Positions 3,264-36,900 of a stretch of DNA of 64,000 nt are shown piece after piece; position 1 is the stretch's first letter, and every line of letters starts with the position of its first letter. The DNA is from Chlorokybus atmophyticus (taxonomy: Eukaryota > Plantae > Mesostigma and Chlorokybus algae). The stretch covers positions 151,586-215,585 of the forward strand of contig RHPI01003762.1 in assembly GCA_009103225.1 (NCBI GenBank), read 5' to 3'. The notes beneath the pieces are model-generated. The model was given only the letters and a program-made list of their open reading frames with translations, made no database searches and was not told the origin of the DNA. The position numbers and the translations under genes were made by a program.

Positions 3264-3469
3264 TTCCCCCCCACTTAGCTTTTCAACGTCCTCGTTGAAC
3301 TCAAGTTGATCAGGCTTGATTTCGAGTAATTGTAACCACTGAAATAGCAGGAAAGGACAGGGTGGTAATGAAACTGCACTGCCAGTCTGTCATAAAAGCA
3401 AGCCCACAGTTTATGGGACAGGACGTGAATCCCAATAAGCTCGAAGCAACTCGCGGCAGTGCGTAAGAT

Positions 3470-6861: not shown

Positions 6862-7103
6862 TCGCGACCATGGGCCATAATGTCGAGGGATAATTACTCA
6901 TGCAGTGACAGCATGTTGTAATTGCAACTCGTGTAAGTGCTTAACAGCAGCTACTAATTCAGAGAATGGAACATTGATTAAAACACAACCGTTTGCATTT
7001 GTAAACACAGGTGGTGTGCTCATATCAGTCAATACATCTGATACATCACAAAGAGAGGAAACTTTATCAAGAAGTACAGAGTTTTTAAAGTCGTTCTGCT
7101 CGA

Positions 7104-9054: not shown

Positions 9055-9581
9055 TGTAACAGCACCACCGTCGCCGGTGATGCCCCTTCAATCCTCTACC
9101 CCAACACCCACACCGCCTATGACAAGCCTTTGAACGGCGTGGCCGCCACTGAGCAAAGAACTAAAAGTCCCTCACATCAATTTGATGTGACCTTTTATAT
9201 CAAGAGTATATTACATATATACCTCTCGATAATTAACTTACAACTAGACATCGACCCTACAGATAGGGTAGTTAGGAAATCTAGCGTGGGCCAATCACAG
9301 CTCAGATAAGGTACCTATCGATAAGGTACCTATCGAAAGACACCTATCGTAAGGTACCTAACGAGATAGTGACCACATTATATCAAATGTGACATTAGAT
9401 AGGCTTGAATAAGCGGTTTCACACTCATAGGGACTTATTTGAGCTATGATAAAGCATCATAGCCTTTAATAAGCGAAGAACCGTAGAAAAAAGGTATAAA
9501 TAAGCATATTTAGGTACTTATTTATACAGAATGTGTTATTTAGGTAGCAATAATACCCCTATTATTATTGCTTCCGTTACA
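9055..9581 (-). repeat. 5' LTR of Gypsy-1
   Basis: Direct repeat of 2737-3263; followed on the - strand by ttggtatccaagag. Confidence 0.95.
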
Positions 9582-10532: not shown

Positions 10533-11219
10533 CGTCGCATTATTACACAATGACGATCCAGGGACTGAGGGACTGACGGGTACCTGACCCTGCCTGACCT
10601 AACGGATTGGTCCATGAAGGGACTTATAGGACGGCCGGTGCTACTACTCATCAACATATAATAACGGCCAGCGGTCGGCCGATAGCTACACGCGATTAAA
10701 ACCTGCCTGCGATGATTAAAACATGACGTCAACGCATCATTAAGTGACGGCCAATCGCTGGTTGTCTATTTTGCTCGATAGCGACCTATCTAGCATAACA
10801 GACTGCCACCTTGCAGTCATTTTTCGCGACGGTCGACCGCCAGTCGTATCATAATCATCTTACCGTATGCGCGGCGGCTTGCCTACTATGGCAAGCCAGT
10901 CACTGTCAATCCTCATTCCATGACCTGCCCGCTTGTCAATAAGTGACGGCAAAACACCGGTCGTCCGTTGGTGCGGTGGCGACCTACCGACTATGACAAT
11001 CAAGTGACCGCCCGTCATTTATTGACGGCGAGCAATGCGGAACAATGGTACATGCAACTATCGTACCATACAAATGGTACGAAAATCCCATTATTACAAT
11101 AGCACCATCGCACCATTTTCAGGGTACGATGGTGTCATTGTGACAACGTGTTTGAATCATTTGGGTTGCCCAAGGTTTAAATGCTCTATGGCTTCAAGCA
11201 AGTTGAACAGTTGAGTTGT

Positions 11220-11823
11220 TGTCAAACCTATCGCCCAAGCATGCCAGTCATCATCAGGCATGCCTACAGCGAGACCCTCGCCCCGCTTACCAGCATGGCA
11301 ACCCGCGCGCGTCTCTGACCAGTAGCTAGGTCATGTCTCGAGAGTAGCTCGTGACCATAGCCTACATAGGCACCGCGCGTAGCTGTTCAGTTGTGAGTTC
11401 AGTTATAAGTCAGGTCCTATATCGAGTGGGAATTTCCTGTGAAAATAGCCTCGATATGACCGTTAGCTTATGTTCTGGACAGTCATGAGTTGACTTGTAT
11501 AAGTAGGCACAGTGTTCACCGGATCAGCTGGTGACACTGTAAGTGAGAAAGCTAAGAGCTTGTGAAGCGACTTGAACTACGAAACACACCGTCCTGGTTC
11601 CCAAGAATCCCCTCATCGTGTGAGAGCCTGTGCATGTTCTTGTGCACTGCGCTTGTCCGTGCTGTGAGCTTTGTGTACTTGGTCACGATGTGCTTGTTGG
11701 CATCAGTCAGGGCATAGCATCCACGTGTTGCTTGTTCATTCACCTCACTTAACAGTGTAATTTCTCTTCCACTCACGCAAAGAACTGTGTAAACAGCACT
11801 ACCTATCGTAGTGGCTTGTTGAC
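11220..11823 (+). repeat. Repeat A1 (604 bp), copy 1
   Basis: Near-identical to 21439-22042 (roughly a dozen substitutions by eye). Confidence 0.95.
11498..11544 (+). promoter_or_regulatory. TATA-like box and predicted transcript start / self-primer
   Basis: TATAAG at 11498-11503; GGTGACACTGTAAGT starts 32 nt downstream and is the exact reverse complement of 11822-11836; same 32-nt spacing in copy 2. Confidence 0.65.
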
Positions 11824-11836
11824 TTACAGTGTCACC
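11822..11836 (+). other. Self-priming-type primer binding site
   Basis: ACTTACAGTGTCACC at the end of A1, no TGG tRNA PBS; conserved in copy 2 (38958-38972). Confidence 0.7.
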
Positions 11837-14800
11837 CTCTTTGCTCAAGTAAGTGTAGTTGCAGGCTGTACAACAGCATCGCAATCTGTAGTTGTACACA
11901 TCACAGTGCAGTGTTGTCACCGTCATCGCATAGCGCGCACAAGCGCTAGTGTGTTGGGTGATAGCAGCACTGGAGATCCCATTGTAGAGCACAAACACTC
12001 TACCCTTCATCCACTTTCACCATCGCATCAGCTGTATGAGCAGGCCCACCCCTTTCTCGCCAATAGAAGAAGGGGACCTCAACAGCTGGAGCCCAACCTC
12101 CAACCTTACCTACGAGCGCGCAAGTGAAGGGAGCGATTACCGTAGCAGCAGAGGCTCACGCCCCGTCTCCGGCTTCACCTCCTCTCACTCCACTCCTCGT
12201 CAACGAGCATCTCCACCACCGTCGGACAGTGACGACGAAGAGATGGAGCCTTTCAGCTCAACTAACTCCCTACGCTTCTCCGGACGCCCTGGCACCACCT
12301 CACTTGACGAGTTCATCATCAAGTTCCACTCCAAGATGCGGCAGCAGACCCTCAAGAGCAAGGACTGGACAGATGAGGTATCGTTTCATGTGTCCGCTTA
12401 ATACCTTAATCACGAAGCACATAATGTGTGGAAGTCCGCCGCTGAGTTGCACAGGATTGATGGCTATGGCGAGTTGGCCAGCACAATAGCCGCCACATCA
12501 CTGCACAGCCCATCGGTTACTGTCCCTGTAGCAGCGGCCCCGCCCACTTCAGTCACGGGTCTCACTCTAGCTGCAGCCATGGAGAAGGCAGAGAATGAAG
12601 AAGTTGAGGTGGTAGTGGCCTCATTGACTCCTGCAGAGATCGAAAGCAAGAAGGCCGAGCGCCGGATCAGGATACTCAACCGCACCGCTGCCATCATCAG
12701 GGAGCAACAAGAGGAGCAGCAAGCTGCAGCATTGGAGATGGGTACGCCCCTTCTACCAACACCGAACTCGCGTGCTCCAGCGGGAGGCAGTGTTTTCACC
12801 CTCGGTTCAGTGGCATTGCGTGCACCCGCGCTCACGGTGGGCGCGGCCATGTCGAACTCCCCGTCGAAGGACCTCTACGCCGCACTCCGGCGCACCTTCC
12901 CACCTCAAACCAACAGTAAGGTGGAGGAGTTGAGGTGTTTTCGACGGAAGCCCCACGAGGACCCTCTCCGACTGTATTCACGGTTGGAAGGGTTGCTTAA
13001 AGACACTGACTACAAGATCGTCAGTGAGGAGGCGGCAGCAGTGGTGTATGTGGCCGAGTTGGATCCCACCCTGAGTGAGTCAACGCGCCTGACGCTGAAC
13101 TACAGCAGGCCCCTCGGCTACACCCTCAAGGAAGCTTTCGAGACTGCACAAGCCATCCATAAGCGTGCAGTGTATGAGAAAGCGGTGCTGGACACCAACC
13201 GCAGTGCCTCACGGCCTGTGGCAGGCACAAGTGCGGAGCCTCTTCGGCGGGACCGCAGCCGCGAGCCGCAAGGCATCCATTACAAGGATAAACGGTCAGC
13301 TCATGCTGCCCTTGTGGCTCCAGTGCTGTGCCACCGGTGTGGTCGACATGGCCACTACCAAAAAGAGTGCACCGAAGATTACGGCAACCTTGTGTGCGAC
13401 CACTGCCACAAGACGGGACACTTGGAGACAGTATGCTGGCTCAAATTCTCTGAGCTGCGGCCCTCTACTGGCTACAACCACGGCAACAACGCTGTTGGCT
13501 ACCGCGGCAACAACGGGGGCTACAACAACAGCAACCACGCTGGCGGCTACAACAACAGCAACAACGCTGGTGGTCGCAACAACGGCAACAACGCTGGTGG
13601 CCACAGCCCCAACAACAACAACAACGCTGGCGCCCGCAAGGAAGAAGCTGGCTATAAAGGAAAAAACCGCCCTCCACAGCACAAAGGACTTGAGGGACGT
13701 CCTCGCGCTGGAGCTGCTGCTGTAAAGGCACCAACTAATCCATTGGCTATTGACCAAGTGGCAGCCCTGATGGCGCGCGTGGCACAGCTAGAGGAGAACA
13801 AGGAGCAGGACTATCAAGCATGCTATGCTGCTAGGTGGGCACTGATGGCACCGAAACGGGATAGGGACACTCCCACGCCGTCACGCGTACAACCATCCAG
13901 ACGGGCGCGCAGGGAAGCTGGCGCGTCGTCAACAGCGGCATCGTCGGACGCCACAAGTGGTGCTGCCTCGGCAGCCACAACCACCGCTGGGACGACGCCG
14001 TCGACGACACCGTCGGCGTCCACACCGACCACGACAGCAGGTGTCAGCACCCTTGGCACCACGCTGTCCCCGGTGATGGGGAGCACCCACGCCGCAACAA
14101 CCATGGTCGTTGCGTTCGTAAGTGGTGAATCCACCACTCCTGCCTCCATCGAAGCGCCCACATCAACCGCAACTGCTGCCACCCTCACAGCCGCCACCTC
14201 AGTAACGACGACTGCTGCAGGTGCCACCACCATCGCCTCCAGTAGTGCTGCCATACCCACTGCACCACTTCTTGAGGGACGAACGGCACCGCCACCAGCG
14301 TTGGACGTCACACAGCAAGTGCCACGCGGGCCACAAACAGAGCGCGCCTGGGTGTCGGTTCTACGCAACGTGGAACCCACCACCATTGCGTACGGACCAG
14401 GGGGGCAACGCACCACGCGCGTGGCACGCGATGATCGCATCTTGTCCCTACCACCTCCAGAGTACTACACGCTGCCGGAACCCACACAACAACAGCTGGA
14501 GGGTGAAATCCTCGCCGGCACTGCATCAGAGATGAGGGATCGTCTGTTTGGGGTCACCTACCGACGACCTGCGGTATTCGAGCTGGCCATCCAGTTGTTC
14601 CTGGCGTTACACGCACGATTGCAGAACGCACCCAGTCAAACGCAGCAACCCATGCCCGCTCAACAGATCAACTTGGAGCCCTCACCACTGGACCCACTCG
14701 GCCTCCAGCGACACAAACTGCAAGACCTCGTGGTCACCATGTCTGACATCGCGCTGGGCGCTGATCCCGCTCTCGGAGGGCTCACTCCAGGCAGTCGTCA

Positions 14801-16129
14801 AGAGCGTTTCTCTGCACTCGAACAGGCCCATCGTTATCGAATGGACCAAGCTGCTCAAGTGAACGCGCGCCGACAAGCGTACGAAGCAGCACACACCGTT
14901 ATCGTACCGACCGGAGCGCCAGCAAATGTCGCCAGCGCCTCTACGGCGCTGACCACAGCGTACTCCACGGCAACCGCCATCGAGCAGCCGGGACACGCAA
15001 CTGTTGCAGACTAAGCGAGGGCGTTGGCGCAACAATTGAGGGGGGTAATCGCCCCGCTGCTGCCTCTTTTGGTCGAAGACATGCCTGAGGATCAACGCGA
15101 TGCAGGGCGAGGGTACCTCACCCCGCAAGGGGACACCACACAGCGAGGAGGAGCTGGTATGGTGGGGGAGCAACAACTCTGTACCGCACTCATCCGGCAA
15201 GCAGTCATGTTGCACAGGCCTGAGGGCAACACATTAAGACAGATGATGGGGATGCAAGAAGGCAGCGCCGCTCGAGCCCGTCTCGTGACATGGCTCGTTG
15301 CCAATCACCCTGCTGTCCCCATGTTTGCCTTTGGCAACCGAGCATCATGGTTGGGGGCATTTGTTCGTTCGCTGCGACAAGCATACGACGAGGCTGCCAC
15401 CACAGCCCCGGACACGCTGGAGGGAGTGCAAGAGGCAATAATGCGGCTGCCAGGGGTGGAAGCCGCACGGCAACGGCGGCGCATCGCCATTGCTCATGAG
15501 CTACACGCACAGCAGACTGACCTCCAGCGCACCCTACGCGCTCGCGCCATGACCGTGCTTGATGTGGGAGTGGTACAAGGAAGGTGGGATGCCTACATGG
15601 CAGGGATCTTGCGAGTCCCCACCATCACTCACGACATGCGGCGACAGCTACTACGCGCCGTATACCTGCAGCCTATGCCTCAATATCATCATTAGACCGA
15701 CACGGTCACCGAGCCCACGGCCACGTGGGAAGGGACATTGGTCGGAGAAGCGGCTCATGCTGTTCGATGGACGTACGCCGCGGAGCAAGCTGAACGCGAG
15801 GCAGGCCCACAAACACCGGGTCCGCCAGGGTTTCCTCCACAACCATTGGGTACACCCGCGGGCATGATTCCAGCTTCGCAGAGGCGTCATCCACCTGCGC
15901 CGCCACCACAACCAGCGCCGGAACCTCCAGCACCGAGGCCCCCCCGTGTCTACCAACCACCACGACAAGGTCGGTTCGGCAGAGGGAGAGGGCAAGGAGG
16001 GGGTTCTCCGGACCCAGCAGGCAGAGGAGCTCTGGCTGCCATGCGCTCAGCACCGCCAGCTGAGACAACTGAGTCAGAGGTACAGACACCTCGTATGAAG
16101 AGGCTGCGTATCGACGCCAATGCTGCCAT

Positions 16130-16510
16130 GGTGGCCAACCAAGGCAAGCACGTTACCATCAACGATCTGGCACCCAAGCGAGTAATGTTGGACACCGGAG
16201 CACAGCCTGTCATCATTGGGCGCTTCCTCGCGCGGTCCCTAGGCATAACCAGCTCCGACTTGATGCCTTGCCCGTATGTGTTAGACACTGCCACAGGTAG
16301 CCGAGATAAGGTGATGGGAGTCACCAGGGAGGCCTTTTGCATTCGGTTGACAGGGCTGGACCCAACCCACACGACCGAGTTCGTCCAGCAATGTGTGGTC
16401 ACCAATGCCGGCTCCTTCGACTTTCTGCTTGGGCAGGACTTCAACTTCCCTGTGGGCATGGGCCTCGACTACCGGACAGAGCGAGCGTGGTTTCGGCCAC
16501 ATTGGGATGA
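16130..16510 (+). other. Aspartic protease domain, copy 1
   Basis: KRVMLDTGAQPVIIG...FDFLLGQDF. Confidence 0.85.
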
Positions 16511-16919
16511 GGATGACGGAGAGGTACAGGGTTTCCTGCCTCTCGAGTTGGTCTCGCGCACGCGCGCCCAACGCAAAATGGTTGCCATGGCCACACGCAG
16601 CCACGCCCGCACCCGGAAGGCTGTAATGGCCACATACGACGGCGCTCGGACGCAAGTCGCTGCTGGTGCCACGGCCCCGTGTGGAACCGGCGACTCCTCT
16701 CCCATCTCGTACAACGAGGAGCAGGAGGATGCCACCATGGAAGTAGCATTACAAGACCCAGCTGAACGGCGCTGGCGCGCACAGGTGGACGCACACATCT
16801 TGCTCAGCCATCCACTGATCACCACGCGCTTCCCAAACTACCGAAGCCACGTCAAGGTGCAGGACCGCCATATGGTGGCCACCGGAGTGGTGGAGTTCCA
16901 CACCTTTCGCAGGCAACAG

Positions 16920-17880
16920 GGCATCACACTGTTGGAGCTGTTTGGAGGCATTGGCAGTGGTCTTGCTGCGGTTCTCAACACAGGCGTGAAGGTTGTCCGA
17001 TACTATTATTGCGACCCAGACCCACACGCGCAAACGGTCCTCAAGCACCACTTACGCCAACTGCACGCCAGATATCCACGTCAACTACCCCTCTCGGCGT
17101 TGCAAGGCAGCCTCAAAGCATTGCCACAGGACATCCGGCTGATCACTGAAGATCACCTACTGTCCCTCGGCAACGTCGACCTGTTAATAGCTGGATGGGA
17201 ATGTCAAGGGCACTCCAGGGCAGGCAAGGGGCAAGGCCTCGAAAACCCTCGCTCCGGGCTGTTCTGGGAGCTGATGAGAATCATCCACCTCCTTCAACAC
17301 CACTAGATCTCCAGACCCCTGGGGTACGTCATCGAAAATGTGCATTCAGAGGACGACAAGCGTCCGCACGTGGCCTCCAGCTACCAACAAGTTTGCTCCA
17401 TTCTGGGGCACCCACTCAAGGTGAACGCGGCACGACATGGCTCGCGCGCACATCGTGTACGTGCCAAACGGACAAACTTGGCCACCGTGGAGGAACTCGT
17501 GACCGCCGAATACACACGCAGCGCTCGGCCGCGCAACATGCTGGTCGACAACATCCTTGACCCCGGCCGCACAGCACAACCTGTCCTGCGTCATGACCAC
17601 AACCACTTCTACCCGTGCAATCAGCCCGGTCAGCCCCGTCGCGCCCTCCCAACATTGGTGTTCTACCCGGGCTGCTACGCATTTCGGAACGGTGGTGACG
17701 GGATGGTGTTCGATACAACCACCAACAGGCTGGAAGAACCCAACGCACGCGAACGTGAACGCGCCATGGGATTCTTCCCCAACAGCATCACGGGCTCATC
17801 GCTGACGGACAGTCAGCAATGCCAGCTGCTTGGTCGCGCCATGGACCAAAACAGCATGGTATGGCTGCTGGAGCTGAGCT
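16920..17880 (+). other. C5 cytosine methyltransferase domain (DNMT3-like), copy 1
   Basis: Motif I ELFGGIG, IV LLIAGWECQGHS, VI ENV, VIII RAHRVR..TNL, IX ERERAMGF, X LLGRAM; one in-frame TAG at 17304-17306. Confidence 0.88.
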
Positions 17881-20800
17881 TCGCGTTGCAGGACCGCCAC
17901 GTGTCCTTCGAGGATCTCGAACACTTGGCTGGGGGGTGGGCTGATCGCGTGGCCGACACCAAGGCAGCTCACACAGCCCTCGAGGTGATCCATTTGGAGG
18001 AGCAAGCAGCAGTGACATGGCATTGACCCGTTGGCCACAGAAGACACTCGCGAGAAGCTGGAGGCTCTCCTCAACCAATGGAGGAGCCAATTCAGCTTCA
18101 ATGTGAAGGAATTGGGTACATGCTCAGTGTACCAGATGGACATCGAGCTGGTGGACACTGAGCCGGTGTTCCGACGACAATACAGGCTCTCCAAGTTGGA
18201 AGAAGACTTGGTGGAACAGAGATGTAAGGCGCTGCTGGATGCAGGCCTTATCGAAGAGTCCACATCGGACTTCGCAGCAGCAACCGTCATGCCACTGAAG
18301 AAGGATTCAGCAGGCAACTGGACAGAGCGACGCATGTGCGGCGACTATCGCCCCCTCAACAAGACCAAGCAAGACCGGTACCCCATGCCCACAGCAGAGG
18401 GTATTTTTTATGATGTGGGAGACTGCACAGTCTTCAGCATCCTGGACATGCGTCAGGGGTACAACCAAATCGCCATCAAGGACGAGGACAAGCACAAGAC
18501 CTCCTTCTGGGGCAACCGACAGTTGTACCAATGGAAGGTAATGCCGTTCGGGCTGAAGAATGCCCCCGCCAAGTTTCAACGCGTCATGGACAAAGCCTTG
18601 AAGGGGCTGGACTGCGCGCGGTGCTACATCGATGACATCCTCATCTTCAGCCGCAGCAACGAGGAGCATCTTCAACACATCGAAGCGGTGCTAAAACGAC
18701 TCAAGGGAGTGGGGATGACCGTACACCCCGACAAGTGTATCTTCTTCACCCACAAGGTGCCATACTTAGGGCACATGATTGTGCCCCATGGTGTGTATGT
18801 GCAGCAGGCAAAAGTAGAGGCTCTGGCAGCTATCCCTGCCCCGACAGACCTCACACGCCTGCGCGCTTTCTTGAGACTTGCCAACTACTATCGCCGGTTC
18901 GTGAAGGACTTCGCAAAGATCGCAAGGCCCCTCAACGAGCTACTGAAGAAGGAGGTGGACTTCGCGTGGAAGGAGCCGCAACAGCAGGCCTTCGAGGAGC
19001 CGAAGAGCAGACTCACCAGCGCTCCCATCCTTCAACGTCCGGACTACGCCAAGCCTTTCATCCTTCACACCGACTGGAGCAAGCTGGGGATGGGAGCGGT
19101 GCTGGTGCAGCACGATGAGAACAAGAAGGAGCGGGTGGTGTCATACGCCAGCCGAAGCAACAACAGCGCCGAGGCCAACTACAGCAGCTACGAAGGGGAG
19201 TGCCTCGCTGCAGTGTGGAGTGTGGGCCATCTCCTTCTTCCAACTTTTCCTCTTTGGTCGACAGTTCCAACTGATCACCGATCATCAGCCCCTCAAGTGG
19301 CTGATGACCAACCAACATCTGACAGGGAAACTTGCTCGATGGGCCATGCTGTTACAGGAATACGACTTCGAGATTGACCACCGCGCTGGCCTCACCAACT
19401 AAGACGCCGATGGCCTCAGTCGCAACCCTCACCTCAGCACCAACGACGCAACTGGAGCGCGGCATGAGCTCATCTCGGCAGCAACAGCCCCCACCATGGC
19501 AGCCGTGTTTGCTGCTGCCGCGTTGCGCTGAGGGCGCAAGACCAACACCACGGCCTCAGTAGCGGTAGAGGCGATTCCTGCCCTTGAGTCTACCGACCCT
19601 GCGGCAACCACACCCTTGGAAGACGCCCACGCAGCCGACATTGATGTCGGTGACACAGAGCTGGCGCCCACCGACACCAGGCAGGCCATATGGCATGACA
19701 AGCCGTCACTCTCCTTCCTTCAAAGTGGCCATCTTCCCTCCGGCATGAGCGTTCGAGAGAAGGACCGGGTCAACCAACGCACCCGTCACTATCGATGGGC
19801 AGGTGACAATCTGTATCGCCGCTTCCACGACGAAGACAAGGAAGTGCTGACACCAGTCACGCGCGCGGGCATCATCACTTCCCTCCACACTGAGCTTGGA
19901 CACTTCGGTGTCAAGCGTACAGTCAGCCTGGTGAGGGCACAATATTGGTGGTATGGATTCACAAAACAGGTGCGAAGGTTCGTCAGCCACTGCCAGCAGT
20001 GTGACATGGTGCGCGCCAGCCTCAACACGCGTAGCGCCACCTTGCACCCACTTCCCATCTCCGGTCTCTTTTACCGATGGGGACTCGACATCTTGGGGGA
20101 CTTGGCACCCTCGGCACGTGGCAACCGTTACATCCTGATCATGATCGAGCACTTCTCCAAATGGGTGGAGCTGGTGCCATTGCCCGACAAGAGCAGCAGG
20201 GGGGTGTCTCAAGCCTTCCTCTCTCACGTTCTCAGCCGTTCGGCAGCTGCGCCGAGGTCATCACTGACCAAGGTACTGAGTTCAGAGGGGAATTCGACAC
20301 CCTCTTGGACAAATGTTACATCGACCACCGCCGTACCTCGCGTGATCACCCTCAAGCCGACGGCCTCGCCGAACGTACAGTACAGACCATCAAGAAGGCA
20401 CTCCGCAAATACGTGCTGGAGTACGAGAAGAACACTTGGGATGACCACCTCCCGTGGGTGGCCCTTGGATATCAATTGTCAAAGCAGGCGGCTCTGCGGG
20501 AGTACAGCCCGTACTACCTGCTGTTCGGGCGACCACCAATGCTCCCCTTCCGTGCGCAGCAGGAGGTGCATCGCGTCGTGAACAACCTCGACGACCCTGA
20601 CTGGATGCACCACGACATCACCACGCGCGCCGCGCTTTTCGAGCGCACCGTCCCCATGGCCTTCAACAACCTGCGCATCGCGCAGCATCGCGACACGCTG
20701 CGCTACGAGCGTGTACGCAGCGGCTTCTACAAGGAGCGCCAACGGCGGTTCCAAGCGGGGGACTTTGCCTATCGCATGGCAGCCACCAAAGACACACTTG

Positions 20801-20982
20801 ACACCTCCGTAGGCCGCACCGTCTACAAGGTACTCAAAGTGTACCCCACAGGGGTGCTGGACCTCCTTGGTCAGAATAGAGAGAGGTTGAAGGACAATAT
20901 GGTGAACTGTGCGCCATGTCACCTTCCTTACGTGGCCGGCTTCGGGCGTATCCAGCACCCTCGTCCCGCGCGCAGCACACGC

Positions 20983-21119
20983 TGTGAACACTGCGGCAGC
21001 GCTGGCGACGACGCACTCATGATGCTCTGCGATGGCTGCAACCAAGGCCTGCATTGCTACTGCCTGGAGCCACCTTTGGACACGATACACCTATGGAAGA
21101 ATATTGGTGCGACGACTGC
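20983..21119 (+). other. PHD finger at integrase C-terminus, copy 1
   Basis: CEHC..MLCDGC..HCYC..(frameshift)WCDDC is a C4HC3 pattern. Confidence 0.88.
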
Positions 21120-21186
21120 CGTACCAACGGCCCTCCTTACTTGCGTTAGCAGCTGAGCTCTGGAGCTGGAACCTTCCCGAGAGCCC

Positions 21187-21194
21187 AAGGGGGG
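21187..21194 (+). other. Polypurine tract before B1
   Basis: AAGGGGGG just upstream of TGGCTTGTTGAC; a G12 run occupies the same position in copy 2 (29593-29604). Confidence 0.7.
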
Positions 21195-21199
21195 TGGCT

Positions 21200-22272
21200 T
21201 GTTGACGTTGTATGCTACAGCACAGCATGTTCTTAGGGAGAACACCGACTCCATCTGCCCGTACTACCCAGCAGCAGCACACCAGCTGCACGAAGCACTT
21301 GTCACCATGAGGGTGGAGGTCATCTTTCTGTTTTTGCTACGCGTTACACAGGTGGCGCAGCAGCATGTCCAGCACAGCATGGCTGTCCATGCAGCTGTCC
21401 GAGACAGCGTGACCCTCGACTCCCCTCGACCCGACAGCTGTCATGCTTATCGCCCAAGCATGCCAGTCATCATCGGGCATGCCTACAGCGAGACCCTCGC
21501 CCGGCTTACCAGCATGGCAACCCGCGCGCGTCTCTGACCAGTAGGTAGGTCATGTCTCGAGAGTAGCTCGTGACCATAGCCTACATAGGCACCGCGCGTA
21601 GCTGTTCAGTTGTGAGTTCAGTTATAAGTCAGGTTCTATATCGAGTGGGAATTTCCTGTGGAAATAGCCTCGATATGACCGTTAGCTTATGTTCTGAACA
21701 GTCATGAGTTGACTTGTATAAGTAGGCACAGTGTTCACCGGATCAGCTGGTGACACTGTAAGTGAGAAAGCTAAGAGCTTGTGAAGCGACTTGAACTACG
21801 AAACACACCGTCCTGGTTTCCAAGAATCCCCTCATCGTGTGAGAGCCTGTGCATGTTCTTGTGCACTGTGCTTGTCCGTGCTGTGAGCTTTGTGTACTTG
21901 GTCGCGGTGTGCTTGTTGGCATCAGTCAGGGCATAGCATCCACGTGTTGCTTGTTCATTCACCTCACTTAACAGTGTAATTTCTCTTCCACTCACGCAAA
22001 GAACTGTGTAAACAGCACTACCTATCGTAGTGGCTTGTTGACGTTGTATGCTACAGCACAGCATGTTCTTAGGGAGAACACCGACTCCATCTGCCCGTAC
22101 TACCCAGCAGCAGCACACCAGCTGCACGAAGCACTTGTCACCATGAGGGTGGAGGTCATCTTTCTGTTTTTGCTACGCGTTACACAGGTGGCGCAGCAGC
22201 ATATCCAGCACAGCATGGCTGTCCATGCAGCTGTCCGAGTCAGCGTGACCCTCGACTCCCTCCGACCCGACA
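21200..22272 (+). repeat. 3' repeat block B1-gc-A2-B2, copy 1
   Basis: B1 21200-21436 matches B2 22036-22272 (237 bp each); A2 21439-22042 matches A1. Confidence 0.95.
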
Positions 22273-22276
22273 TTGT

Positions 22277-25103: not shown

Positions 25104-27224
25104 CTACAAGCCGTTGTTGCAAGAAGCTGCTACAAAGTTCTCCATGTGGAGAGTTTCAGTGCGTAACTTGCTCAGCCCATTGAGTTGCAGAGTTGAAACA
25201 CTCTTCCAGACCATTGTCACCTGTGACAGCTCTGCATACATTGAACGAATTGGTCTGCTGCTGGTTTGCAGATATGAAATCAACGGTGTGTTGCACTTGT
25301 GAAGTTACATATATGTACGTCTCTGATGGGGATAAAAGGTCTGTCGCCAATGCTGGTATGCAGATCCAACTCTGCTTGCATCCACTCATTGTCACAATGA
25401 TTACTATCAACAACCTCTGCTTCAGGTGTGCCATGTCTGCGCACATGCAGGTTTAGTATATTGCGCACATGTGCACAGTCTGTATCAAGCTGCACGCACG
25501 ATACTCGTATTGTACATAACTACAGCAAGGGTTAGCTGCATGTATGTGCATTATGATACATCTATGCATGACAGACAAACATGCGCATTCGCGTCCATAC
25601 ATGCGCACTTGCGCACTTGCGCATTGCTATCATACACATGACTACTTGCTAGCATGCCTGCCACTGTACTACGCAGCAGGCGTTGACTGACGGCATCAAT
25701 CACTTCTGCAAAGCTAGGCGTGGCTGCTCTTGCATGGGGACATATCGACATATGCAGCCTGCTGGTTGTATTTAGCCGCCTTTGCAACCATAACCACCCT
25801 GATCGCCGCAACCGCAGCCACGACCGCGACCACATTAAGACTGGGTATTCCCCTCTTCTGTGATAGAGCGCATGCAAGCGCACAATTGCATTAACGTTGT
25901 GGTATAAGACAAACATCCAGTGAGACTTGAAAGTATGCCCTGAGCTTAGCGAGGCTAGTTGAACTGCAAATGGATCCACAAGACAATCGCTGAGCATTAT
26001 CATAATACAGGTCATGCGCACATTGTGCAGCTTGATAACTAACAGGGGGCTGCATGTAACAGTCGAGGCCAAGTTTCATAATTTTAGGAATGTTTTTGGC
26101 CCATTTGTCGAGCACCACGTTTTCATGACTTGTGGCAGATATCGGCGATTTATGAGTCTGCCGCGGATGTTGACCGGGGCCCCAGGACCAGTCCGGAAGG
26201 TGCCAGAAAACGGATGGCCAGTCGAGAAGGGCTCGACCAGATTTCTTGAAGGGCATGGCGCCAAGTAGTCAAACTTGACCATATGAGCACCTAATCAGGA
26301 GATCTTTGGTGCGTAAGAAAGTATACTACAAGGTTCTTTGATGACATCTTAGCATCTGATTTTGTGTAGCACGGGAATCGTCTAGACAGTAGCATGTGCA
26401 GACTGGTAGGTATTGTCGTGCCTGCCATGGTCAAGGGCAACCTTGTCTCGGACAGGCTGCGGAGGAGTGCTAGTGTTGCACGCATGCTAGTGCCGTGCAT
26501 TGCCTTGGAGTCATGTAAGCAAAAGACAACCCCCCAATCGTGGGCATAGGCTTGAAGATGAGCCTACGCGGTGTTCAGTGCAGTGGACGAGCCGCTGCCG
26601 CTCGCCACCTTTGGTTACAGACTGTGTCGTAGTGCACACAGTCAACAAGCCACTACGATAGGTAGTGCTGTGGACACAGTTCTTTGCATGAGTGGATAGA
26701 ATGATGACACTGTTAAGTGAGGTGAATGAGTGTGCAACACGTGGTACAACACCCTGACTGATGAGACAACACACCACCGCCAAGCTCACAGCAATGACAG
26801 GCACAGCGCACAAGAGCATGCACCGTGTCTCACGCAGTAAGGGAATTCTTGGCAACCGGGACAGCGTGCTTCCAGTTCAAGTCGCTTCACAAGCTCTTTA
26901 GAAACAGAGTCTTTACTTCTTAGTACTCCTAGTACTCACAGTACTCACTTACAGTGTCACCAGCCAGTCTGGTGACGTGACTTCCTACTTATACATGTCA
27001 AACTATGACTGTGCAGTGCCACGCGGGCACTAGGCCAACGGTCACATCGAGGCCTCATGCTATTTCGGAAATCTTTTAAGACTCGATATAGCACATGTGT
27101 TATTAACAGACTTACAACTGATCAGCTACGCGCGGTCCCTACAGACAGGTCTATAAAGTAGCCCTAGCTACATGCTACATGGGAGGTACAGTAGCTAGCA
27201 GTAGGCTGGGGCTCGCGCGGTCTT

Positions 27225-29271
27225 TGTTGAAGGTATTACATGGGTGATGCTTGTATCCGGTCAGCTTGCCCTTCATACAGGAGTCGAGGGTCGAAGGTAC
27301 CAGGAAGAAGCGCGTGGGCTCCAGACTTAGCAAGACGGTCGAGTCATGACGGACTCCGGACCAGGCTTCTTGGTAGAGCCTTGGGAGAAATCGCGTAGCT
27401 TTGTGGATACGTAAGCTTAGCAGGCGTGGCTTAGCTTGTTGAAAAGCTCTGGTTGTGAGCTAGACAGCGTAGCTTACAGAACAGCAATCCGCTGAGTATA
27501 GCGCACGCGGTGCTTGTCAATGTAGACGTGTGTAGAGACTGGGGGGGTATAAAGCCCAGACTTGTTGCAATGAAGAAGAGAGGTCACGATGTAGCATGTG
27601 TGCGGATGCTATGGCGGCAGTAGCAGTCATGCTCTTGTGTTGATGTTGTTGGCGTGTCACTTGCACGTGTGTATGTCAACAGGTTATGGGCCCACACATG
27701 CTTGTGTAGGTTGATGGAGTGTGTTACAATTGTATGTGTAGCTGTAGTTGCTTTGTGGTAGTGTGGGGTTGTGAGGTCTGTGAGCAGAGAGGGCAACCAA
27801 CCAAGGCCACCAGCATGGGCAGCTTGAAGATTGCGATTGGACTACTGGACGTTGACGACTACAACACTTGGAGTGTGAAGATGGAGCTACTACTGGCCCA
27901 TAAGGAGATGCGGAAGTACATGGACCAAGAGGAGGAGATGATGGAGATCTTCTGGTGACTGAAGAAGAGTACGTGAAGTACTTGGTAGAGGAGGCGTCCT
28001 TGATACGTGAGAGCTGAAGATGTCAGCTCGTGTTGCTGAGTGCGAGGAGTACTTGGTGGAGCGTGGTGAAGCGCTTTGAGGAATGCGAGAGGCAACCCGT
28101 GGTAAGCACGTTGATGTGCTTGGTGGAAGGAAGGGGAGCAGATGGCAACCCTTGAGGTCGAGCACGGTGGAGTGTTTGATGAACCTTCCGAGAAGGGGAG
28201 CGAGGGCAGTCCTTGGTGAAGCACGGTAAAGTGCTTGGTACTTTGGTTGAAGCATGTGGAGTGCTTGGCTGAAGGTGCATGCGAGGAAGCGAGATGAGCA
28301 TCCTGGAAGCGTGATCGCTTGGAAGCTGGACATGGAGCATCCTGGAGGCATGAAGCTTGGAGGCTATACGCAGAAGCATGTGGACGTGGACATGAAGATG
28401 GCCATGGTGTGCGCAAGGTTGCTGCATTGACAAGGGTGGTTGAGGATGGAGTTGCAAGATACCACAAGGTCATGAGCAACAAGCAGGCACAAGTAGGTTG
28501 CGATTGTGGAGCCCGTGGGAGCTGCAAGTGGTGGAAAGCAAGTTGACTAGAGGAGTCATGGGCTGATACCTGAGGCGGAGGCACTGTCAATGAGGACAGA
28601 TGCAGCGGGTGCATGAAGGCAACATGTATGTACAGCAAGGAGCAAGGTTGGTGGTCAACCATGAGGCTCGAGTTGCTGTGGAAGTGAATGACTTCAAGAT
28701 CATCCATGAGAAGCATGGAGGCGTGAGGAAAAAGGTGAAGGCTTGCGTGAGAGCAAGCGGTGTGTGTGAGTAATGCAGGAGCTGATGTTGAAGGACAAGC
28801 TGCCCGCGTGGGAGTGTTGAAGGTATTACATGGGTGATGCTTGTATCCGGTCAGCTTGCCCTTCATACAGGAGTCGAGGGTCGAAGGTACCAGAAAGAAG
28901 CGCGTGGGCTCCAGACTTAGCAAGACGGTCGAGTCATGACGGACTCCGGACCAGGCTGCTTGGTAGAGCCTTGGGAGAAATCGCGTAGCTTTGTGGATAC
29001 GTAAGCTTAGCAGGCGTGGCTTAGCTTGTTGGAAAGCTCTGGTTGTGAGCTAGACAGCGTAGCTTACAGAACAGCAATCCGCTGAGTATAGCGCACGCGG
29101 TGCTTGTTAATGTAGACGTGTGTAGAGACTGGCGGGGTATAAAGCCCAGACTTGTTGCAATGAAGAAGAGAGGTCACGATGTAGCATGTGTGCGGATGCT
29201 ATGGCGGCAGTAGCAGTCATGCTCTTGTGTTGATGTTGTTGGCGTGTCACTTGCACGTGTGTATGTCAACA
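27225..29271 (+). mobile_element. Non-autonomous Ty1/Copia-like element (degenerate gag only)
   Basis: 457-bp LTRs 27225-27681 and 28815-29271 with about 5 differences; TSD GTCTT; PBS GGTTATGGGCCCA; LDVDDYNTWSVKMELLL resembles the Copia gag N-terminus (from 27815). Confidence 0.88.
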
Positions 29272-29673
29272 GTCTTCATGCTGGTAGCCCGGGCGTGGGG
29301 CTGGGTGTAGGCATGCTCGAGAAGGACTGGCATGCTAGGGTAGATGGCATGACAGCTGTCGTGCCTGCCATGGTCGAGGGCAACCTTGTCTCGGACAGGC
29401 TGCGGAGGAGTGCTAGTGTTGCACGCATGCTAGTGCCGTGCATTGCCTTGGAGTCATGTAAGCAAAAGACAACCCCCCAATCATGGGCATAGGCTTGAAG
29501 ATGAGCCTACGTGGTGTTCAGTGCAGTGGACGAGCCGCTGCCGCTCGCCACCTTTGTGTACAGACTGTGTCGTAGTGCACACAGTCAACAAGCCCCCCCC
29601 CCCCTGAGATTCTGGGGTAGCCCTCTGCTCCAGAACTCAGTTCCTACCGACTGTGTGGGGGACCGGTGATGCG

Positions 29674-29808
29674 GCAGTCATCGCACCAGTACTCCCACAA
29701 GGGTACTGCGTCCAGTGGAGGGTCAAGGCAGTAGCAGTGCATGCCTTGATTACAGCCGTCGCATAACATCATCAATGGGTCGTCGTCGGCGCTGCCACAC
29801 TTCTCGCA
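29674..29808 (-). other. PHD finger, copy 2 (intact)
   Basis: CEKCGSADDDPLMMLCDGCNQGMHCYCLDPPLDAVPLWEYWCDDC. Confidence 0.92.
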
Positions 29809-32800
29809 TCGGGTGCTGCGCAGCGGACGCGGGTGCTGGATCTTGGTGAAGCCAGCAATGTAGGGGAGATGACAGGGCGCGCAGTTGACCATGTTGTCCT
29901 TCATGCGCTCGCCTCGTTGTCCCAGCAGGTCCAGTACCCCTGTGGGATGCACCTTCAATACCTTGTAGACAGCACGCCCGACGGAGGTATTGAGGGTGTC
30001 GCGTGTAGACGCCATACGGTAGACGAAGTCTCCTGACTCGAAGCGGCGCTCCCGCTCCTTGTAGAAACCACTGCGCACACGCTCGTAACGCAGCGTGTCG
30101 CGGTGCTGCGCGATGCGCAGGTTGTTGAAGGCCATGGGGACTGTGTGTTCGAACAGCGCACTGCGCACTGTCAGATCATACACCATCTCGTCGGGGTTGT
30201 CGAGATTGTCCACCACTCTGTCGACCTCCTGCTGTGCGCGGACAGGGAGCAATGGCTGCCTTCCAAACAGTAGATAGTATGGGCTGTACTCTCGCAGGGC
30301 TGCCTGCTTGGACAGCCGTTAGCCCATTGCTACCCATGGGAGGTGATCATCCCAGGTATTCTTCTCGTAGGTGAGGACGTACTTGCGCAGTGCCTTCTTG
30401 ATGGTCTGCACGGTACGCTCGGCGAGGCCGTCGGCCTAAGGGTGGTCGCGTGAGGTGCGACGGTGGTCGATGAAGCATCTGTCAATAAGCTTGTCGAAGG
30501 CTCCTCTGAACTCCGTACCCTGGTCGGTGATGACTTCAGCGCAGCTGCCGAAGCGTCCGAGTACATGGGAGAGGAAAGCCTGGGCTACTCCCTCACTGCT
30601 CTTGTCGGGCAGGGGCACCAGCTCCACCCACTTGGAAAAGTGCTCAATCATGACGAGGATGTAGCGGTTGCCTCGCGCTGAGGGCGCTAGGTCTCCGAGG
30701 ATGTCCAGTCCCCAGCGGTAGAACAACCCGAAATGGGAAGGGGATGCAAGGTGGCGTTGCGCGTGTTGAGGCTGGCGCGAACCATGTCACACTGATGACA
30801 GTTGCTGACGAACTCCCGCACCTGTCTGTGCACCCCATACCACCAGTACTGGGTCCTGACCAGGCTGACCGTGCGCTTGACACCGAAGTGCCCGAGCTCG
30901 GTGTGAAGGGAGGAGAAGATGCCTTCACGTGCAGCTGGTGTGGGGACCTCCTGATCTGCATCTTGTATCCGTCGATACAGCCTGTCGTTGGCCCAGCGGT
31001 AACGCTGAGTGCGTTGCCGGACGCGGTCCTTCTCGCGTGCGCTCATGCCTGCTGGAAGTTGTCCAGTCTGAAGCAGTGCGAGGGATGGCTCGTCCAGCCA
31101 GATGTCTTGTCGTGTGTCGGTGGGTGCCAGCTCCTTATCATCCACCTCAGGGTCGGCAGCGATCGCTTCTTCTGATAACGGATCTGTGGTGGTGATGGCG
31201 GGCTCGAGAGCGGGCATGTCCCCGTCTGCTGCTGCCTCAGCTATCTGAGTCCTGCGTCCTGAGCGTAGCGCAGCGACAGCGAACATGGTGGCCACACCTG
31301 AAGGTGCAGCTGTAGGACCCAACTCATGTCGGGCGCCTGTGGCGTCGTTGGTGCTGAGGTGGGGGTTACGGCTGAGGCCATCCGCATCCTGGTTGGCAAG
31401 GCCTGCGCGGTGTTCCACCTCGAAGTCGTACTCCTGGAGCAGCAGCGCTCATCGTGCTAACTTTCCTGTCAAGTGCTGGTTGTTCATTAGCCACGAGGGG
31501 TTGATGGTCAGTGACCAGTTGAAACTGCCGTCCAAACAGGAAGGGTCGGAAGAAGGAGATGGCCCACACTGCGGCGAGACACTCCCCTTCGTAGCTGCTG
31601 TAGTTGGCCTCAGCACTGTTGTTGCTGCGGCTGGCGTACGACACTACGCGCTCCTTCTTGTTGTTGTCGTGCTGTACGAGCACGGCCCCCATGCCGAGCT
31701 TGCTCCAGTCCGTGTGCAGGATGAACGACCTGGTGTAGTCAGGGCGTTGCAGAATGGGAGCTGTGGTGAGGCAGAGCTTAAGCTCCTAAAAGGCCTCCTG
31801 TTGTGCCTCCTTCCACAAGAACTCGGTGTCCTTCTTCAGTAGTTCGTTGAGAGGCCTTGCGACCTTGGCAAAGTCCTTGACAAACCGGCGGTAATAGTTG
31901 GCAAGGCCGAGGAAGGCCCGCAGCCGCGTGAGGTCTGTGGGGGCAGGGATAGCCACCAGTGCCTCCACTTTGGCCTGCTGTACGTACACACCATGGGGCA
32001 CAATCATGTGTCCTAGGTAGGGTACCTTGTGGGTGAAGAAGGTGCACTTGTCAGGGTGCACCGTCATCCCGACTTCCTTCAGCCTCTGTAGCACCTCTTC
32101 GATGTGCTGGAGATGCTCCTCATTGCTGTGACTGAAGATGAGGATGTCGTCGATGTAGCAGCGCGCGAAGTCCAACCCCTTGAGGGCTTTGTCCATGACG
32201 CGCTGGAACTTGGCCGGAGCGTTCTTCAGTCCGAAGGGCATGACCTTCCACTGGTACAGCTGCCGGTTTCCCCAGAAGGAAGTCTTGTGCTTGTCCTCCT
32301 CCTTGATGGCGATCTGGTTGTACCCTTGGCGCATATCCAGGATACTAAAGACCGTGCAGTCTCCTACATCGTCAAAGATGCCTTCTGCGGTAGGCATTGG
32401 ATACCTGTCCTGCTTGGTCTTGTTGTTGAGGGGGCGATAGTCGCCACACATGCGCCGGTCTGTCCAGTTGCCTGCTGAATCTTTCTTCAGGGGCATGACG
32501 GTCGCGGCCGCAAAGTCCGATGTGGACTCCTCGATCAGGCCTGCATCTAGCAGCGCCTTGCACCTCTGTTCCACCAAGTCTTCTTCTAGCTTGGAGAGGC
32601 GGTACTGTCTTCTGAACACCGGTTCGGTGTCCACTAGTTCAATGTCCATCTGGTATGCTGAGCAGATGCCCAGCTCCTTCACACTGAAGCTGAATTGGCT
32701 CCTCCACTTGTTGAGGAGCGCCTCGAGTTGCTCTCGAGTCTGGCCTGTGGCCAGCGGTCCAATAGCGTGGGACCACGAGGTAGCGTTGGCGACCACTGGA

Positions 32801-32944
32801 ATGTCTTCCACAGTGACTGCTGCCTGCTCCTCCATGTGGGCGGTCTCGAAGGCGGTGTGTGCTGCTTTGGTCTCTGAAAAGCGAGCAATCCACCCCCAGC
32901 CAGGTGTTCGAGCTCCTGGAAGGACACATGGCGGTCCTGGAGAG

Positions 32945-33906
32945 CAAAGCACATTTCCAAGTACCACACCATGCTGTTCTGATCCATGGCGCGCCCTAAC
33001 AACTGACACTGTTGACTAGTTGTTAGCGTGGAGCCTGTGATGCTGCCTGGAGAGAATCCCATAGCACGCTCGCGCTCACGAGCATTGGGTTCTTCCAACT
33101 GTCCAGTGTTGGAGTCTAACACCATGCCGTCGCCTCCATTGCGGAACGCGTAGGAGCCTGGATAGGATACAAGTGTGGGTAGTGCGCGGCGCGGCTGACC
33201 AGGCTGGTTGCACTGGTAGAAGTGGTGGTGGTCAAGGCGTGTGACCGGTTGCGCTGTGCGTCCAGGGTCCAGGATGTCATCGACGACGAGATTCCGTGGC
33301 CGATTGCTGTATTGGTACTCTGCCAGAAACAGGTCCTCCACAATGGCCAGGTTGGTCTACTTGGCGCGGACGCGGTGTGCGCGAGATCCATGACGCGCGG
33401 CGTTGATTTGGAGAGGATGCCCCAGCAAGGAGCATACTTGTCGATAGGCCTTGGCAACGTGATGCCGCTTGTCATCCTCGGAGTGCACATTCTCGACGAT
33501 GTACCCCAAGGGCCTAGCGACCTGACTGGTCTGCAGGAGTTTGATGACTCTCATCAGCTCCCAGAACAGCTGTGAGCGAGGATCAGAGAGCCCTTGGCCT
33601 CTGCCTGCCCTGGAGTGCCCTTGACACTCCCATCCTGCTATCAGCAGGTCAATGTTGCCGACTGCCTGCAGGTGATCCTTGGTAATCCAGCGGATGTCCT
33701 GCGGCAGAGCCTTCTGGCTCCCTTGCAGTGCCGACAGCGGTAGCTGCTGCGGGTAGCGCTAGTGCAGCTGTCGTAAATGATGGCTCAGAGCCTCCTGTGC
33801 ATGAGGGTCAGGGTCACAGTAGAGGTACTTGGTGACTGTTGTTCCTGTTGAGGACAGCCGCAAGCCCACTGCCTATGCCTCCGAACAGCTCCAGCACGGC
33901 GATGCC
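32945..33906 (-). other. C5 cytosine methyltransferase domain, copy 2
   Basis: ELFGGIGSG; IDLLIAGWECQGHSRAG; YIVENV; ERERAMGF; LLGRAMDQN. Confidence 0.88.
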
Positions 33907-36900
33907 TTGTCGTCGGCGAAACATGTGGAACTCCACAACTCCAGTAGCTATGTGGTACTGCTCCTGCACTGTAGCCTGGTCTTTGTAGACAGGGAAGTGT
34001 GCAGTGAGCTGAGGCCTGGTCAGTAGCATGTGTGCTGCTACTTGTGCGCTCCAGCGACGCTCGGATGGCTCCTGAAAGGCCACTTCTTTGGTGACAGTCT
34101 CCTGAGACTCATCGTACGGTGTAGGAGAGTCCTCTTCAGCGTTTAGGCTCGGGCTCGAGCTCGTTGCAGTTGTCCTTGGCTGCGTTCGGGCACGAGGCAC
34201 ACATGCTTTCTGTAGGAGTGTAGGTGGCTGCTGCGGCCGACCTTCGTTGCGAGCGGGCCTTGGCCACCAGCTCGAGAGGTAGGAATCCCTGCTCCTCTCC
34301 ATCATCCTCATCATCCTCATCCCAATGTGGTCGGAACCATGCCTGCTCAGTCCAGCAGTCCATCCCCATGCCGACAGGAAAGTTGAAGTCCTGTCCCAGC
34401 AGTAGGTCAAATGACCCGGCATCGGTGACCACACACCTTTGTACAATCTCGGTGCTGTGGGAAGGGTTTAGTCCTGTGAGGCGGATGCTCACAGTCTGCT
34501 TGGTAAGGCCGAGCACCTTGTCGCAGTTGCCGGTCGCGGTGTCCAGCTGGCAGGGACAGGGAAGCAGCTCAGCGCTGGTGATGCCGAGATCTCGTGCGAG
34601 GTAGCGCTCAATGATGACAGGCTGTGCTCCAGTGTCCAGCATCACGCGTTTGGGTGCCCGACCATTGACGGTCACGTGCTTGCCTTGGTTGGCGATCATG
34701 GCTGCATTGGCGTTGATGCGCAGCCTCTTGAAGCGACGGAACCTCTTGCGTGGAGAGACTGTTGATTCACCCTCATCTGCGGGGCCTGACCGTAGGGCAG
34801 CCAGGGCTCCTCTGTCTGATGGATCTTGTGGGCCTCCTTGTCCTCGGCTTTGTCCAAACCGTCCTTGTCGCGGCTGCTGGTACACGCGTGGTGGCCTAGG
34901 CCTTGGAGGTGCTGCTGCAACCTGTCCAAGTGGAGGTGCAGGAGGGTTGACCCGTGTGCAGCTGTTGTCATGCCAGGAGAGGTGGCCAGTGGCTGAAGCG
35001 GGAACCCTGGAGGACCTGGTGTTTGCGGGACTGCCTCTCGTGCAGCCTGCTCCTCTGCATAGGTCCATCGCACAGCATGGGCTGCCTTCCTGACTAGTGT
35101 ACCTTCCCATGTAGCCGTCGCATTGTTGTTCACGTCTATATAGCGATGGTTCTGAGGCATGGGTTGCAGGTACACTAAGCGTAGGAGCCACGCTCTCATG
35201 TCGTGAGTGATGGTGGGCACCCTGAGGATCCCTGCCATGTAAGCATCCCATCTGCCGTTGACCACTCCCACTTCCAGCACTGTTATTGCTCGTGCGCGTA
35301 CAGTGAGGCGGATCTCTGGCTGTTGGACATGCTGCTCGTAAGCAACGGCGATGCGCCTGCGCTGACGTCCTGCCTCCACTCCTGGCAAACTCAGTATAGC
35401 CTCCAGAGCTCCCTCCAGAGTGTCAGTGGCGGCGGAAGCCACTTCATCATAGGCTTGCCGTATGGAGCGAAGGAATGCGTCCACCCACGCTATTCTGGCG
35501 CCGAAAGCAAACAACGGGACTGCGGGATGGTTGGTTACCAGCCACTTCACTAACCGCGCGCGCGCCGCGTTGCCATTGTCTCGCATCCCAAGCATCTGCC
35601 GAAGCCCAATGCCTTCTTGCCGATGCAGCATGGTTGCTTGTCGCAACAGAGCAGTGCGTAGTTGTTGCTCTCCAACCAGTCCTGCTCCATCTCTTTGTGT
35701 ACACCCTTGTGGTGTAAGGTAGCCCCTCCCTGGCTCCCTTTGGTCCTCAGGTAGATCCTCCACCAGCGCAGGCAGCAACGGGGCGATCACCCCCCTGGTT
35801 TGTTGAGCCAACGCCCTCGCTTGGTCAAAAATGGTCTCGACGAAGAGCGGAGTGGTGCTGGAGGATGGACCAGCAGCTGGTGGCTGAGGTACTAGTGCAC
35901 GCGTAGCTTCAAGAGCTTGTTCACGTGCAGCAATGGCGGCAGCTTGATCTTGTAGCCAATGATATGCTTGTTCCAGTGCGTGGTAGCGCTGATGAAGGCG
36001 AGCGGTTGTAGGAGGTCCGAGTGCTTCATCAGTGCCCAAAGGCAGGTCGGCTGCGTCGGTGATGCGCTGCTGGACGGTGTCTCGGCGGTCCCGATACGTG
36101 TCCAGCGGGCTGGGTTCAAAGATGGTGGTTGGCATGCGTGTAGGCTGGTGCGGGGCGGTCTGCATGTTGTTGTGCAACGCCCAGATTAGCTGCAGGGCCA
36201 ACTCCAATACTACAGGTGGGCTGTAGCTGATCAAAAACACCCTGTCACGCATCGGAGGTGCAGTGCCAGCAAGGATCTCATCTTCCAACTGGTGTTGAGT
36301 GAGTGCTGGAAGGGTGTGAACCTCTGGTAATGGGAAGACGCGATCATCGCGGGCGACACGCGTGGTGCGCTCCCCCCCCCGACCGAAAGCGATGGTAGTG
36401 GGGTCTGCTCCGCGCAGGATGGTCTCCCATGCCCGCTCAGCTTGCTGACCAATTGGGACAGCCTGAGTGACGTCGAGAGCGGGCAAAGTGGCTACGCGCG
36501 TCGCTGCAGAGACAGCGGGCTCGACGATGGCAATTGCGGCAGTTGCGACGGTACCGGTCAGTGGCGCGAGAGTTGTCTCAACGCCTACGGACAGAGGCAC
36601 TGCTGCAGTGGGAAGTGCACCGCCCACTAGTGCAGACTCGGTAGAGATGGTGGCTGTTGCCATTGTGCTCACTAGTGTCGGCGTCACGGTGTCCATCGGT
36701 GTACCAGATTGTGGTGCAACTGGAGTGGGTGTTGCTGACGTTGGTGGAGTCGACGTTGTAGCCGGTATGGCTGTTGCTGCGGAGGCAGCACCATTGGTGG
36801 CTTCGGAGGAGGTACCTGCTGATGTTGTTGCAGCTTCCCCTCGTGCTCGTCGTGATGGTTGCACGCGGGACGGAGTATTCCTGTCTCTCTCGCGTTTTGC

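Follow-up and report, generated by a model that had tools for sequence, protein, structure and literature searches.

Organization of the two elements

Two Gypsy copies with the same order of parts, A-int-B-GC-A-B (int, internal region), were found in the window, a stretch of 64,000 nt of Chlorokybus atmophyticus DNA. Each copy is flanked by a 4-bp target duplication and has the ends TGTCA...CGACA (Table 1). The coordinates in a first-pass annotation of this DNA were all correct when re-checked against the window sequence. In copy 1 the two A repeats share 97.8% identity and the two B repeats 98.4%. Three differences between A1 and A2 are bunched at 11225-11228 (positions 6-9 of the left terminus). 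Since repeats are about 98% alike within a copy and the internal regions of the two copies are only 72-74% identical, the layout is rebuilt at each replication.

Table 1. Features of the two elements (positions in the window).
Feature	Position	Strand	Remark
Copy 1	11220-22272	+	A1, internal region, B1, GC, A2, B2; TTGT on either side
Left target-site duplication TTGT, copy 1	11216-11219	+	matches 22273-22276
A1, copy 1	11220-11823	+	TGTCA start is the left integrated terminus; carries promoter and R/U5 equivalent
TATA-like TATAAG	11498-11503	+	equivalent position relative to primer in copy 2
Predicted RNA 5' end (self-primer)	11530-11544	+	15-nt exact complement of 11822-11836
Short repeat X at end of A1	11811-11823	+	predicted U5 cDNA end
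Self-priming primer-binding site	11822-11836	+	exact complement of 11530-11544
gag-like ORF, CCHC zinc knuckle	12402-15014	+	weak match, E 0.002
Aspartyl protease and C5 DNA methyltransferase region	15696-18026	+	interrupted by stops
RT and RNase H	18016-19402	+	frameshifted
Integrase and C-terminal PHD finger	19532-21156	+	H2C2 zinc finger; frameshift splits DDE core
Polypurine tract (PPT) G-run	21189-21194	+	precedes B1
B1, copy 1	21194-21436	+	X at start, CGACA at end
Internal att palindrome GACA-GC-TGTC	21433-21442	.	putative integrase cut site; 29351-29360 in copy 2
A2, copy 1	21439-22042	+	
A2/B2 join, single X	22030-22042	+	putative joint of two natural cDNA ends
B2, copy 1	22030-22272	+	CGACA end is the right integrated terminus
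Right target-site duplication TTGT, copy 1	22273-22276	+	pairs with 11216-11219
Copy 2	26414-39632 (read 39632-26414)	-	layout as copy 1
A1; B1; B2, copy 2	38971-39632; 29357-29594; 26414-26651	-	
A2, copy 2		-	split by 2-kb insert
Target duplication GTAT, copy 2	26410-26413	+	partner 39633-39636
Empty site, single GTAT	45122-45125	+	sister LTR of the interrupted Gypsy

Both copies are decayed, with stops and frameshifts in each, and the region is a nest of elements, which would suit a later rearrangement, a nested insertion or an assembly error as the source of the layout. Such an origin is nevertheless extremely improbable: the two diverged copies each have their own 98% repeats and duplications around the same junction, and the layout is common to 21 distinct loci of another family. 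Copy 2 was inserted within an LTR of another Gypsy element, and the sister LTR of that element provides the empty site. For copy 1, one contig links 11219 to 22304 and is a possible but weak empty site (22 differences in 207 nt, with a microsatellite on the right).

The Pfam domains found in the copies are a zinc knuckle, protease, C5 methyltransferase, RT, RNase H, H2C2, rve integrase and PHD finger. No chromodomain match was found in the reading frames of the elements. The integrase of copy 2 has D-60-D-35-E spacing and one in-frame stop; the integrase core piece gave no PDB sequence match at E 0.001. PF00145 (C5 methyltransferase) sits between protease and RT in Pol. Its 132-aa piece matched M.HaeIII (E 4e-6), with DNMT3C/A/B and M.HhaI at similarly weak scores. 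Between the gag knuckle and the protease lie some 550 codons (14400-16150) that can be aligned across both copies and have no Pfam match. The closest named RTs, at about 45-56% identity, are from Calypogeia (a liverwort), Closterium and Klebsormidium nitens. The domain order (protease, RT, RNase H, DDE integrase) is that of Ty3/Gypsy elements, as are the TG...CA ends, 4-bp duplication, primer site and PPT. The two complete flanking direct LTRs of that group are missing: A alone lies on the left and B-GC-A-B on the right. The window elements are a variant within the Gypsy lineage and not canonical LTR elements.

Other elements lie around the two copies. The Gypsy interrupted by copy 2 in one LTR is an ordinary one (26045-45419; Ty3 capsid and rve matches), with LTRs about 90% alike. 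The 2-kb insert in A2 of copy 2 (27225-29271) has 458-bp LTR-like repeats (99%), TGTTGA...TCAACA ends and a 5-bp duplication. It carries a single long ORF without a Pfam match and is probably non-autonomous. Another Gypsy-type element at 2737-9581 has 527-bp direct repeats (93%) and protease/RT matches. A host-like gene region is found at 49205-55640; its long ORFs contain TmcB TPR and several PAS domains. At 58613-59396, nested near-perfect inverted and direct repeats adjoin an N at 59398, a possible local misassembly or foldback.

An internal palindrome conserved among relatives

Within the window, GACAGCTGTC is found at two places only, 21433 and 29351, once per element (0.067 occurrences expected). 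As had been noted earlier, the integrated termini are the two halves of this B/A-junction palindrome, and this is the case in both copies. We searched metagenomes for relatives by RT alignment and examined the best 80 of 491 loci, from 17 of 64 collection parts. Eight loci that repeat another locus's insertion were dropped before counting (L008, L015, L019, L026, L031, L039, L064 and L081). Most of the 80 loci belong to one AT-rich family. The sample covers just three or four families, and the layout counts below are drawn mostly from one of them. A metagenome scan with one protein, the integrase C-terminus, yielded no relatives, and a scan of viral contigs yielded three distant loci, none with usable ends.

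The A and B repeats of the AT-rich family do not align with those of the window. Its termini are TGTCATG and CACGACA and its internal junction is CACGACA-GC-TGTCATG; the spacer is 2 nt in 21 of 21 distinct loci (5 read by eye). Among the 80 metagenome loci, a GACA-NN-TGTCA junction was found in three families besides that of the window. RT identity across the four palindrome-bearing families is 42-57% (AT-rich family versus window, 52%). Their A and B repeats cannot be aligned from one family to another, in contrast to the conserved junction. One nearly intact relative (L004, 976-9317), which represents a further family, has frames of 1369 and 1047 aa and the junction CACGACA-GT-TGTCA. The fourth family is represented by L070 (14295-14763), with the 3' end B-GC-TGTCA-A-B; no A1 was found in the 6 kb upstream. 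At the 18 loci with both ends visible, at least three of the four duplicated bases match in 14 (all four in 7), two match in two others, and none or one in the remaining two (L010 and L066). The palindrome is a conserved feature of the clade, and by comparison of these sequences integration through it is well supported.

Primer site and polypurine tract

Reverse transcription of the ordinary kind had been predicted to give an LTR of the form B-GC-A, and the positions of the primer site and the PPT support this. The putative self-primer lies 32 nt downstream of the TATA-like box in both copies. Folding of the 5' region is unremarkable (z-score -0.75), and the 15-bp helix is the feature that matters. 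In the AT-rich family, where 29 A1 ends were examined, the pairing is retained with other letters; it reaches 15-16 nt in the best-preserved ends and is short or missing in decayed ones. L004 has a 16-nt complement. The complement is thus found in three families despite wholly different sequence. Because it is conserved, a primer at this site could not serve to copy B2 from the RNA, and B2 would have to be added after priming.

The A2/B2 join

The 13-mer GTGGCTTGTTGAC, the short repeat X, was found at 11811, 21194 and 22030 on the plus strand and at 26641 and 38971 on the minus strand (0.002 expected in the window), and 11 nt of it are shared at B1 of copy 2 (29584). Its positions at the A1 end, the B1 start and the A2/B2 join agree with those reported in the first-pass annotation. 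Some of the 13-mer consists of PPT guanines. Counted from the end of the G-run, the predicted cDNA ends overlap by 12 nt in copy 1 and by 9 nt in copy 2. In the AT-rich family the overlap was 2 nt in all 15 elements tested, and the join mostly retains both copies of it (blunt length in 12 of 20). The first-pass annotation had made its reading depend on conservation of both the palindrome and the 13-mer. Four families keep the palindrome; the 13-mer is not conserved.

The other eight joins of the AT-rich family vary in length: +1 (three), -1, -2 (two), -3 and -147. No length variants were detected at 47 control junctions, either B1/A2 (0/21; Fisher p 0.0013) or A1/primer site (0/26; p 0.0005). 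L075 was left out of the join count, its A end being ambiguous. The variable joins belong to a related family whose RT is 52% identical to that of the window; both joins in the window are exact. The A end is of low complexity and slippage may add variants, yet the same A end shows none at A1. In L021 the first ~147 nt of B2 are missing; the loss begins exactly at the A end and the duplication is intact. In L037 a segment from the middle of the internal region to the A2 end is inverted. One break lies exactly at the A2 end, with the A end intact and B trimmed by 15 nt; the other is internal and has no microhomology. Autointegration was ruled out as the source of L037, in which the internal joints use non-att ends. 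L037 is represented by one contig, and chimeras can occur in metagenome assemblies. Other internal inversions were seen in L035 (2923-6057), L029 (4499-4682) and L042 (3388-3970). The L035 break falls within about 15 nt of the L037 break in element coordinates, possibly a fragile or single-stranded spot in the cDNA.

L021, L037 and the join variants are as expected if free cDNA ends are joined by repair, and they agree with the earlier suggestion that the A2/B2 join is a joint of cDNA ends. A short terminal repeat, which had been put forward as the means of circularization, is not needed, with a 2-nt overlap in 15/15 elements and mostly blunt joins. For the window's family, the best reading of X is a microhomology that makes the join exact.

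The variation among joins also bears on a DIRS/Ngaro-type route, by which the A2/B2 join would be inherited from the RNA and the circle inserted by a tyrosine recombinase, own or borrowed. The A1-B1-A2-B2 layout is that of PAT and Ngaro, according to passages in PMC4157794. We consider this route very unlikely. A tyrosine recombinase search of 66 reading frames of at least 110 aa gave no match (E up to 0.01). The elements have TG...CA ends, and the 4-bp target duplications are unrelated, with at least 34 different 4-mers among 38 right flanks. The primer site and PPT are conserved and, as described above, the join differs among copies.

Layouts and permutations

With both ends visible, 13 elements have the A-int-B-A-B layout (11 loci and the two window copies), 7 are A-int-B and none is A-B-GC-A-int-B. 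The 13:0 split has p 0.0002. No B precedes A1 at any of 27 5' ends (25 from loci and 2 from the window; upper 95% bound 10.5%). L032, with a truncated A1, was left out of the 5' count. L004, which ends in PPT-B-A-primer site-internal, was taken as a collapsed assembly or circle and kept outside the layout counts. The upstream palindrome was used even in the rearranged L037. Among the matches listed, contig matching gave loose ends on either side of X, towards the primer site and towards the PPT; it does not separate the permutations, because the same short junctions occur in all of them.

Three permutations had been predicted beforehand. The reciprocal A-B-GC-A-int-B was sought among the relatives and did not appear (0 versus 13). 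A-int-B is common, at 18 of 40 visible 3' ends (17 by script and L060 by eye), compared with 21 B-A-B ends. A solo A-B with a 4-bp duplication was seen in L078, though it is not diagnostic. The A-int-B copies are not older than full copies and are scattered over the RT tree (65 loci, p 0.53). They may derive from 1-LTR circles. A B1-B2 recombination would also yield A-int-B, and the tree does not tell the two origins apart.

These counts weigh on the model of the first-pass annotation, in which recombination through the 13-mer circularizes the cDNA and either palindrome of the finished circle can then be opened by integrase. The model yields the exact sequence of both window copies, and the 9-12-nt end overlap has been retained while the B repeats otherwise diverge between copies. 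In a finished circle the two palindromes would share the same local context, and A-B-GC-A-int-B would therefore be expected about as often as the observed layout. The missing reciprocal product (13:0, and at most 10.5% of the 27 5' ends) and the related family without such a repeat leave the model little chance, and for the clade as a whole it is already contradicted. Its integration through the internal palindrome is well supported; its 13-mer recombination and opening at either site are not.

The one-sided split is accounted for with no added assumptions if the permutation arises in reverse transcription. The plus strand would restart at the B/A junction, with a left end of GC-TGTCA, and the displaced B would be appended to A2 by a template jump. 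The linear A-int-B-GC-A-B would then be processed normally, with no internal cut. Joins with one extra nucleotide (L014, L016, L072 and the solo A-B in L078) are compatible with template jumps. We regard this route as unlikely. The sequence before the junction is not purine-rich and is thus an unlikely primer, and for the right end the template would have to stop at CA-GC. Both the L037 inversion and the L021 deletion resemble double-strand end-joining, and the single shared GC fits a staggered cut.

Proposed mechanism

The layout is probably explained by an integrase cut at the palindrome of the upstream LTR together with end-joining of the natural cDNA ends, a mechanism read from inserted copies alone. 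The RNA would start within A1 and prime itself, as its observed complement suggests. Ordinary reverse transcription would give B-GC-A-int-B-GC-A cDNA, to judge from the positions of the primer site and PPT. Integrase would then cut the palindrome after each CA, with a 2-nt stagger (CA^GC^TG). The cut palindrome would present two CA-3' ends with 2-nt 5' overhangs, equivalent to 3'-processed retroviral ends. Insertion of these ends with a 4-bp stagger would account for the observed termini and duplications. The freed B piece would then probably be joined to the U5 end of A2 by a repair pathway, to which the imprecision seen in relatives points. This join appears to be blunt in the largest related family and probably uses 9-12 nt of microhomology in the window's family. 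The A-int-B copies would stem from 1-LTR circles, or from intermediates cut early, in which the one palindrome present was opened.

Use of the upstream site in every case is most likely a matter of timing, as this site would be the first to become double-stranded after second-strand transfer. In the standard model, the upstream LTR then needs less than 1 kb of synthesis and the downstream LTR about 9 kb; for these elements the lengths would be ~0.85 kb and ~9.4 kb. With the upstream LTR completed earlier, integrase could commit to the upstream site first. We lean towards a join made before strand transfer. The circle would then already be committed to one site and the chromosome would be spared a break.

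A wider proposal is that a clade of green-plant Gypsy elements has abandoned the ends made by reverse transcription for integration. Its integrase would act like a restriction enzyme on an inherited palindrome, 2-LTR and 1-LTR circles would be the normal precursors, and the element's own methyltransferase would select the site. If the CG next to the B-side CA were methylated on the first LTR duplex, the two LTRs, once finished, would be hemimethylated on opposite strands. This CG is present in three of the four families and the mirror position in A has no CG, which is the sole support for site choice by the methyltransferase. We consider the wider proposal doubtful.

Whether circular LTR cDNA is a true integration precursor has been debated since the 1980s, on the strength of minor retroviral pathways; a circle model of integration was reportedly put forward by Panganiban and Temin in 1984. 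In the window-type elements, cleavage of an internal palindrome appears to be used for every insertion, and the question could be put directly with a 16-bp duplex and one recombinant integrase. LTR finders that rely on paired LTRs would be expected to miss such elements, which could conceal a widespread lineage in algae and early land plants.

Comparison with known systems

KnitGypsy-Dnmt3 of Klebsormidium nitens has a DIRS-type repeat arrangement according to the legend of Fig. 4c in de Mendoza et al. 2018 (PMC5890265). Like the window elements, it has Gypsy domains, a C5 methyltransferase in Pol and split A-coding-B-A-B repeats. Where the paper describes it, neither its termini and duplications nor a palindrome, a primer site or a mechanism are given, and the term 'PHD' is absent from the main text; the window elements carry a PHD finger. 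The K. nitens RT P0022 is 53% identical to the window RT and may not be that of KnitGypsy-Dnmt3. Among the open-access papers searched, one uses the name KnitGypsy, and no mechanism for split repeats on an integrase element was found. The layout is known from one figure legend (PMC5890265), and the mechanism proposed here appears to be new relative to those papers.

An A1-coding-B1-A2-B2 layout in which the insertion junction is repeated internally is also that of PAT, TOC1, Kangaroo, Ngaro and VIPER, which encode tyrosine recombinases, as stated in passages of PMC4157794. What sets the window elements apart is their DDE integrase, along with TG...CA ends and 4-bp duplications, a PPT and a self-priming site. 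They are DDE-integrase elements that converge on the DIRS/Ngaro layout. A primer site that pairs with the predicted 5' end of the RNA is shared with Tf1/sushi and the plant Tcn1, self-priming Gypsy elements which, in the account of PMC6317226, have the ordinary paired LTRs that the window elements lack.

Foamy-virus integrase cleaves an LTR-LTR palindrome in vitro on both strands after CA, leaving 2-nt 5' overhangs (PMC1180852), and circle-junction cleavage of a similar kind is reported for HIV-1 (PMC1905944, PMC4372172). The step proposed for the window elements is alike, since a palindrome cut after CA on both strands yields processed ends. In the foamy virus the palindrome comes from the joining of cDNA ends and the cut restores the ordinary linear form. 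The window elements inherit the palindrome as part of the LTR; the true joint of cDNA ends would be the other, non-att junction, and the product is permuted. For other LTR elements, portions of the literature describe end-joining that acts on cDNA, the 1-LTR circle as the commonest circle and linear DNA as the integration precursor. Within the window's clade, the att palindrome would stay intact in a 1-LTR circle.
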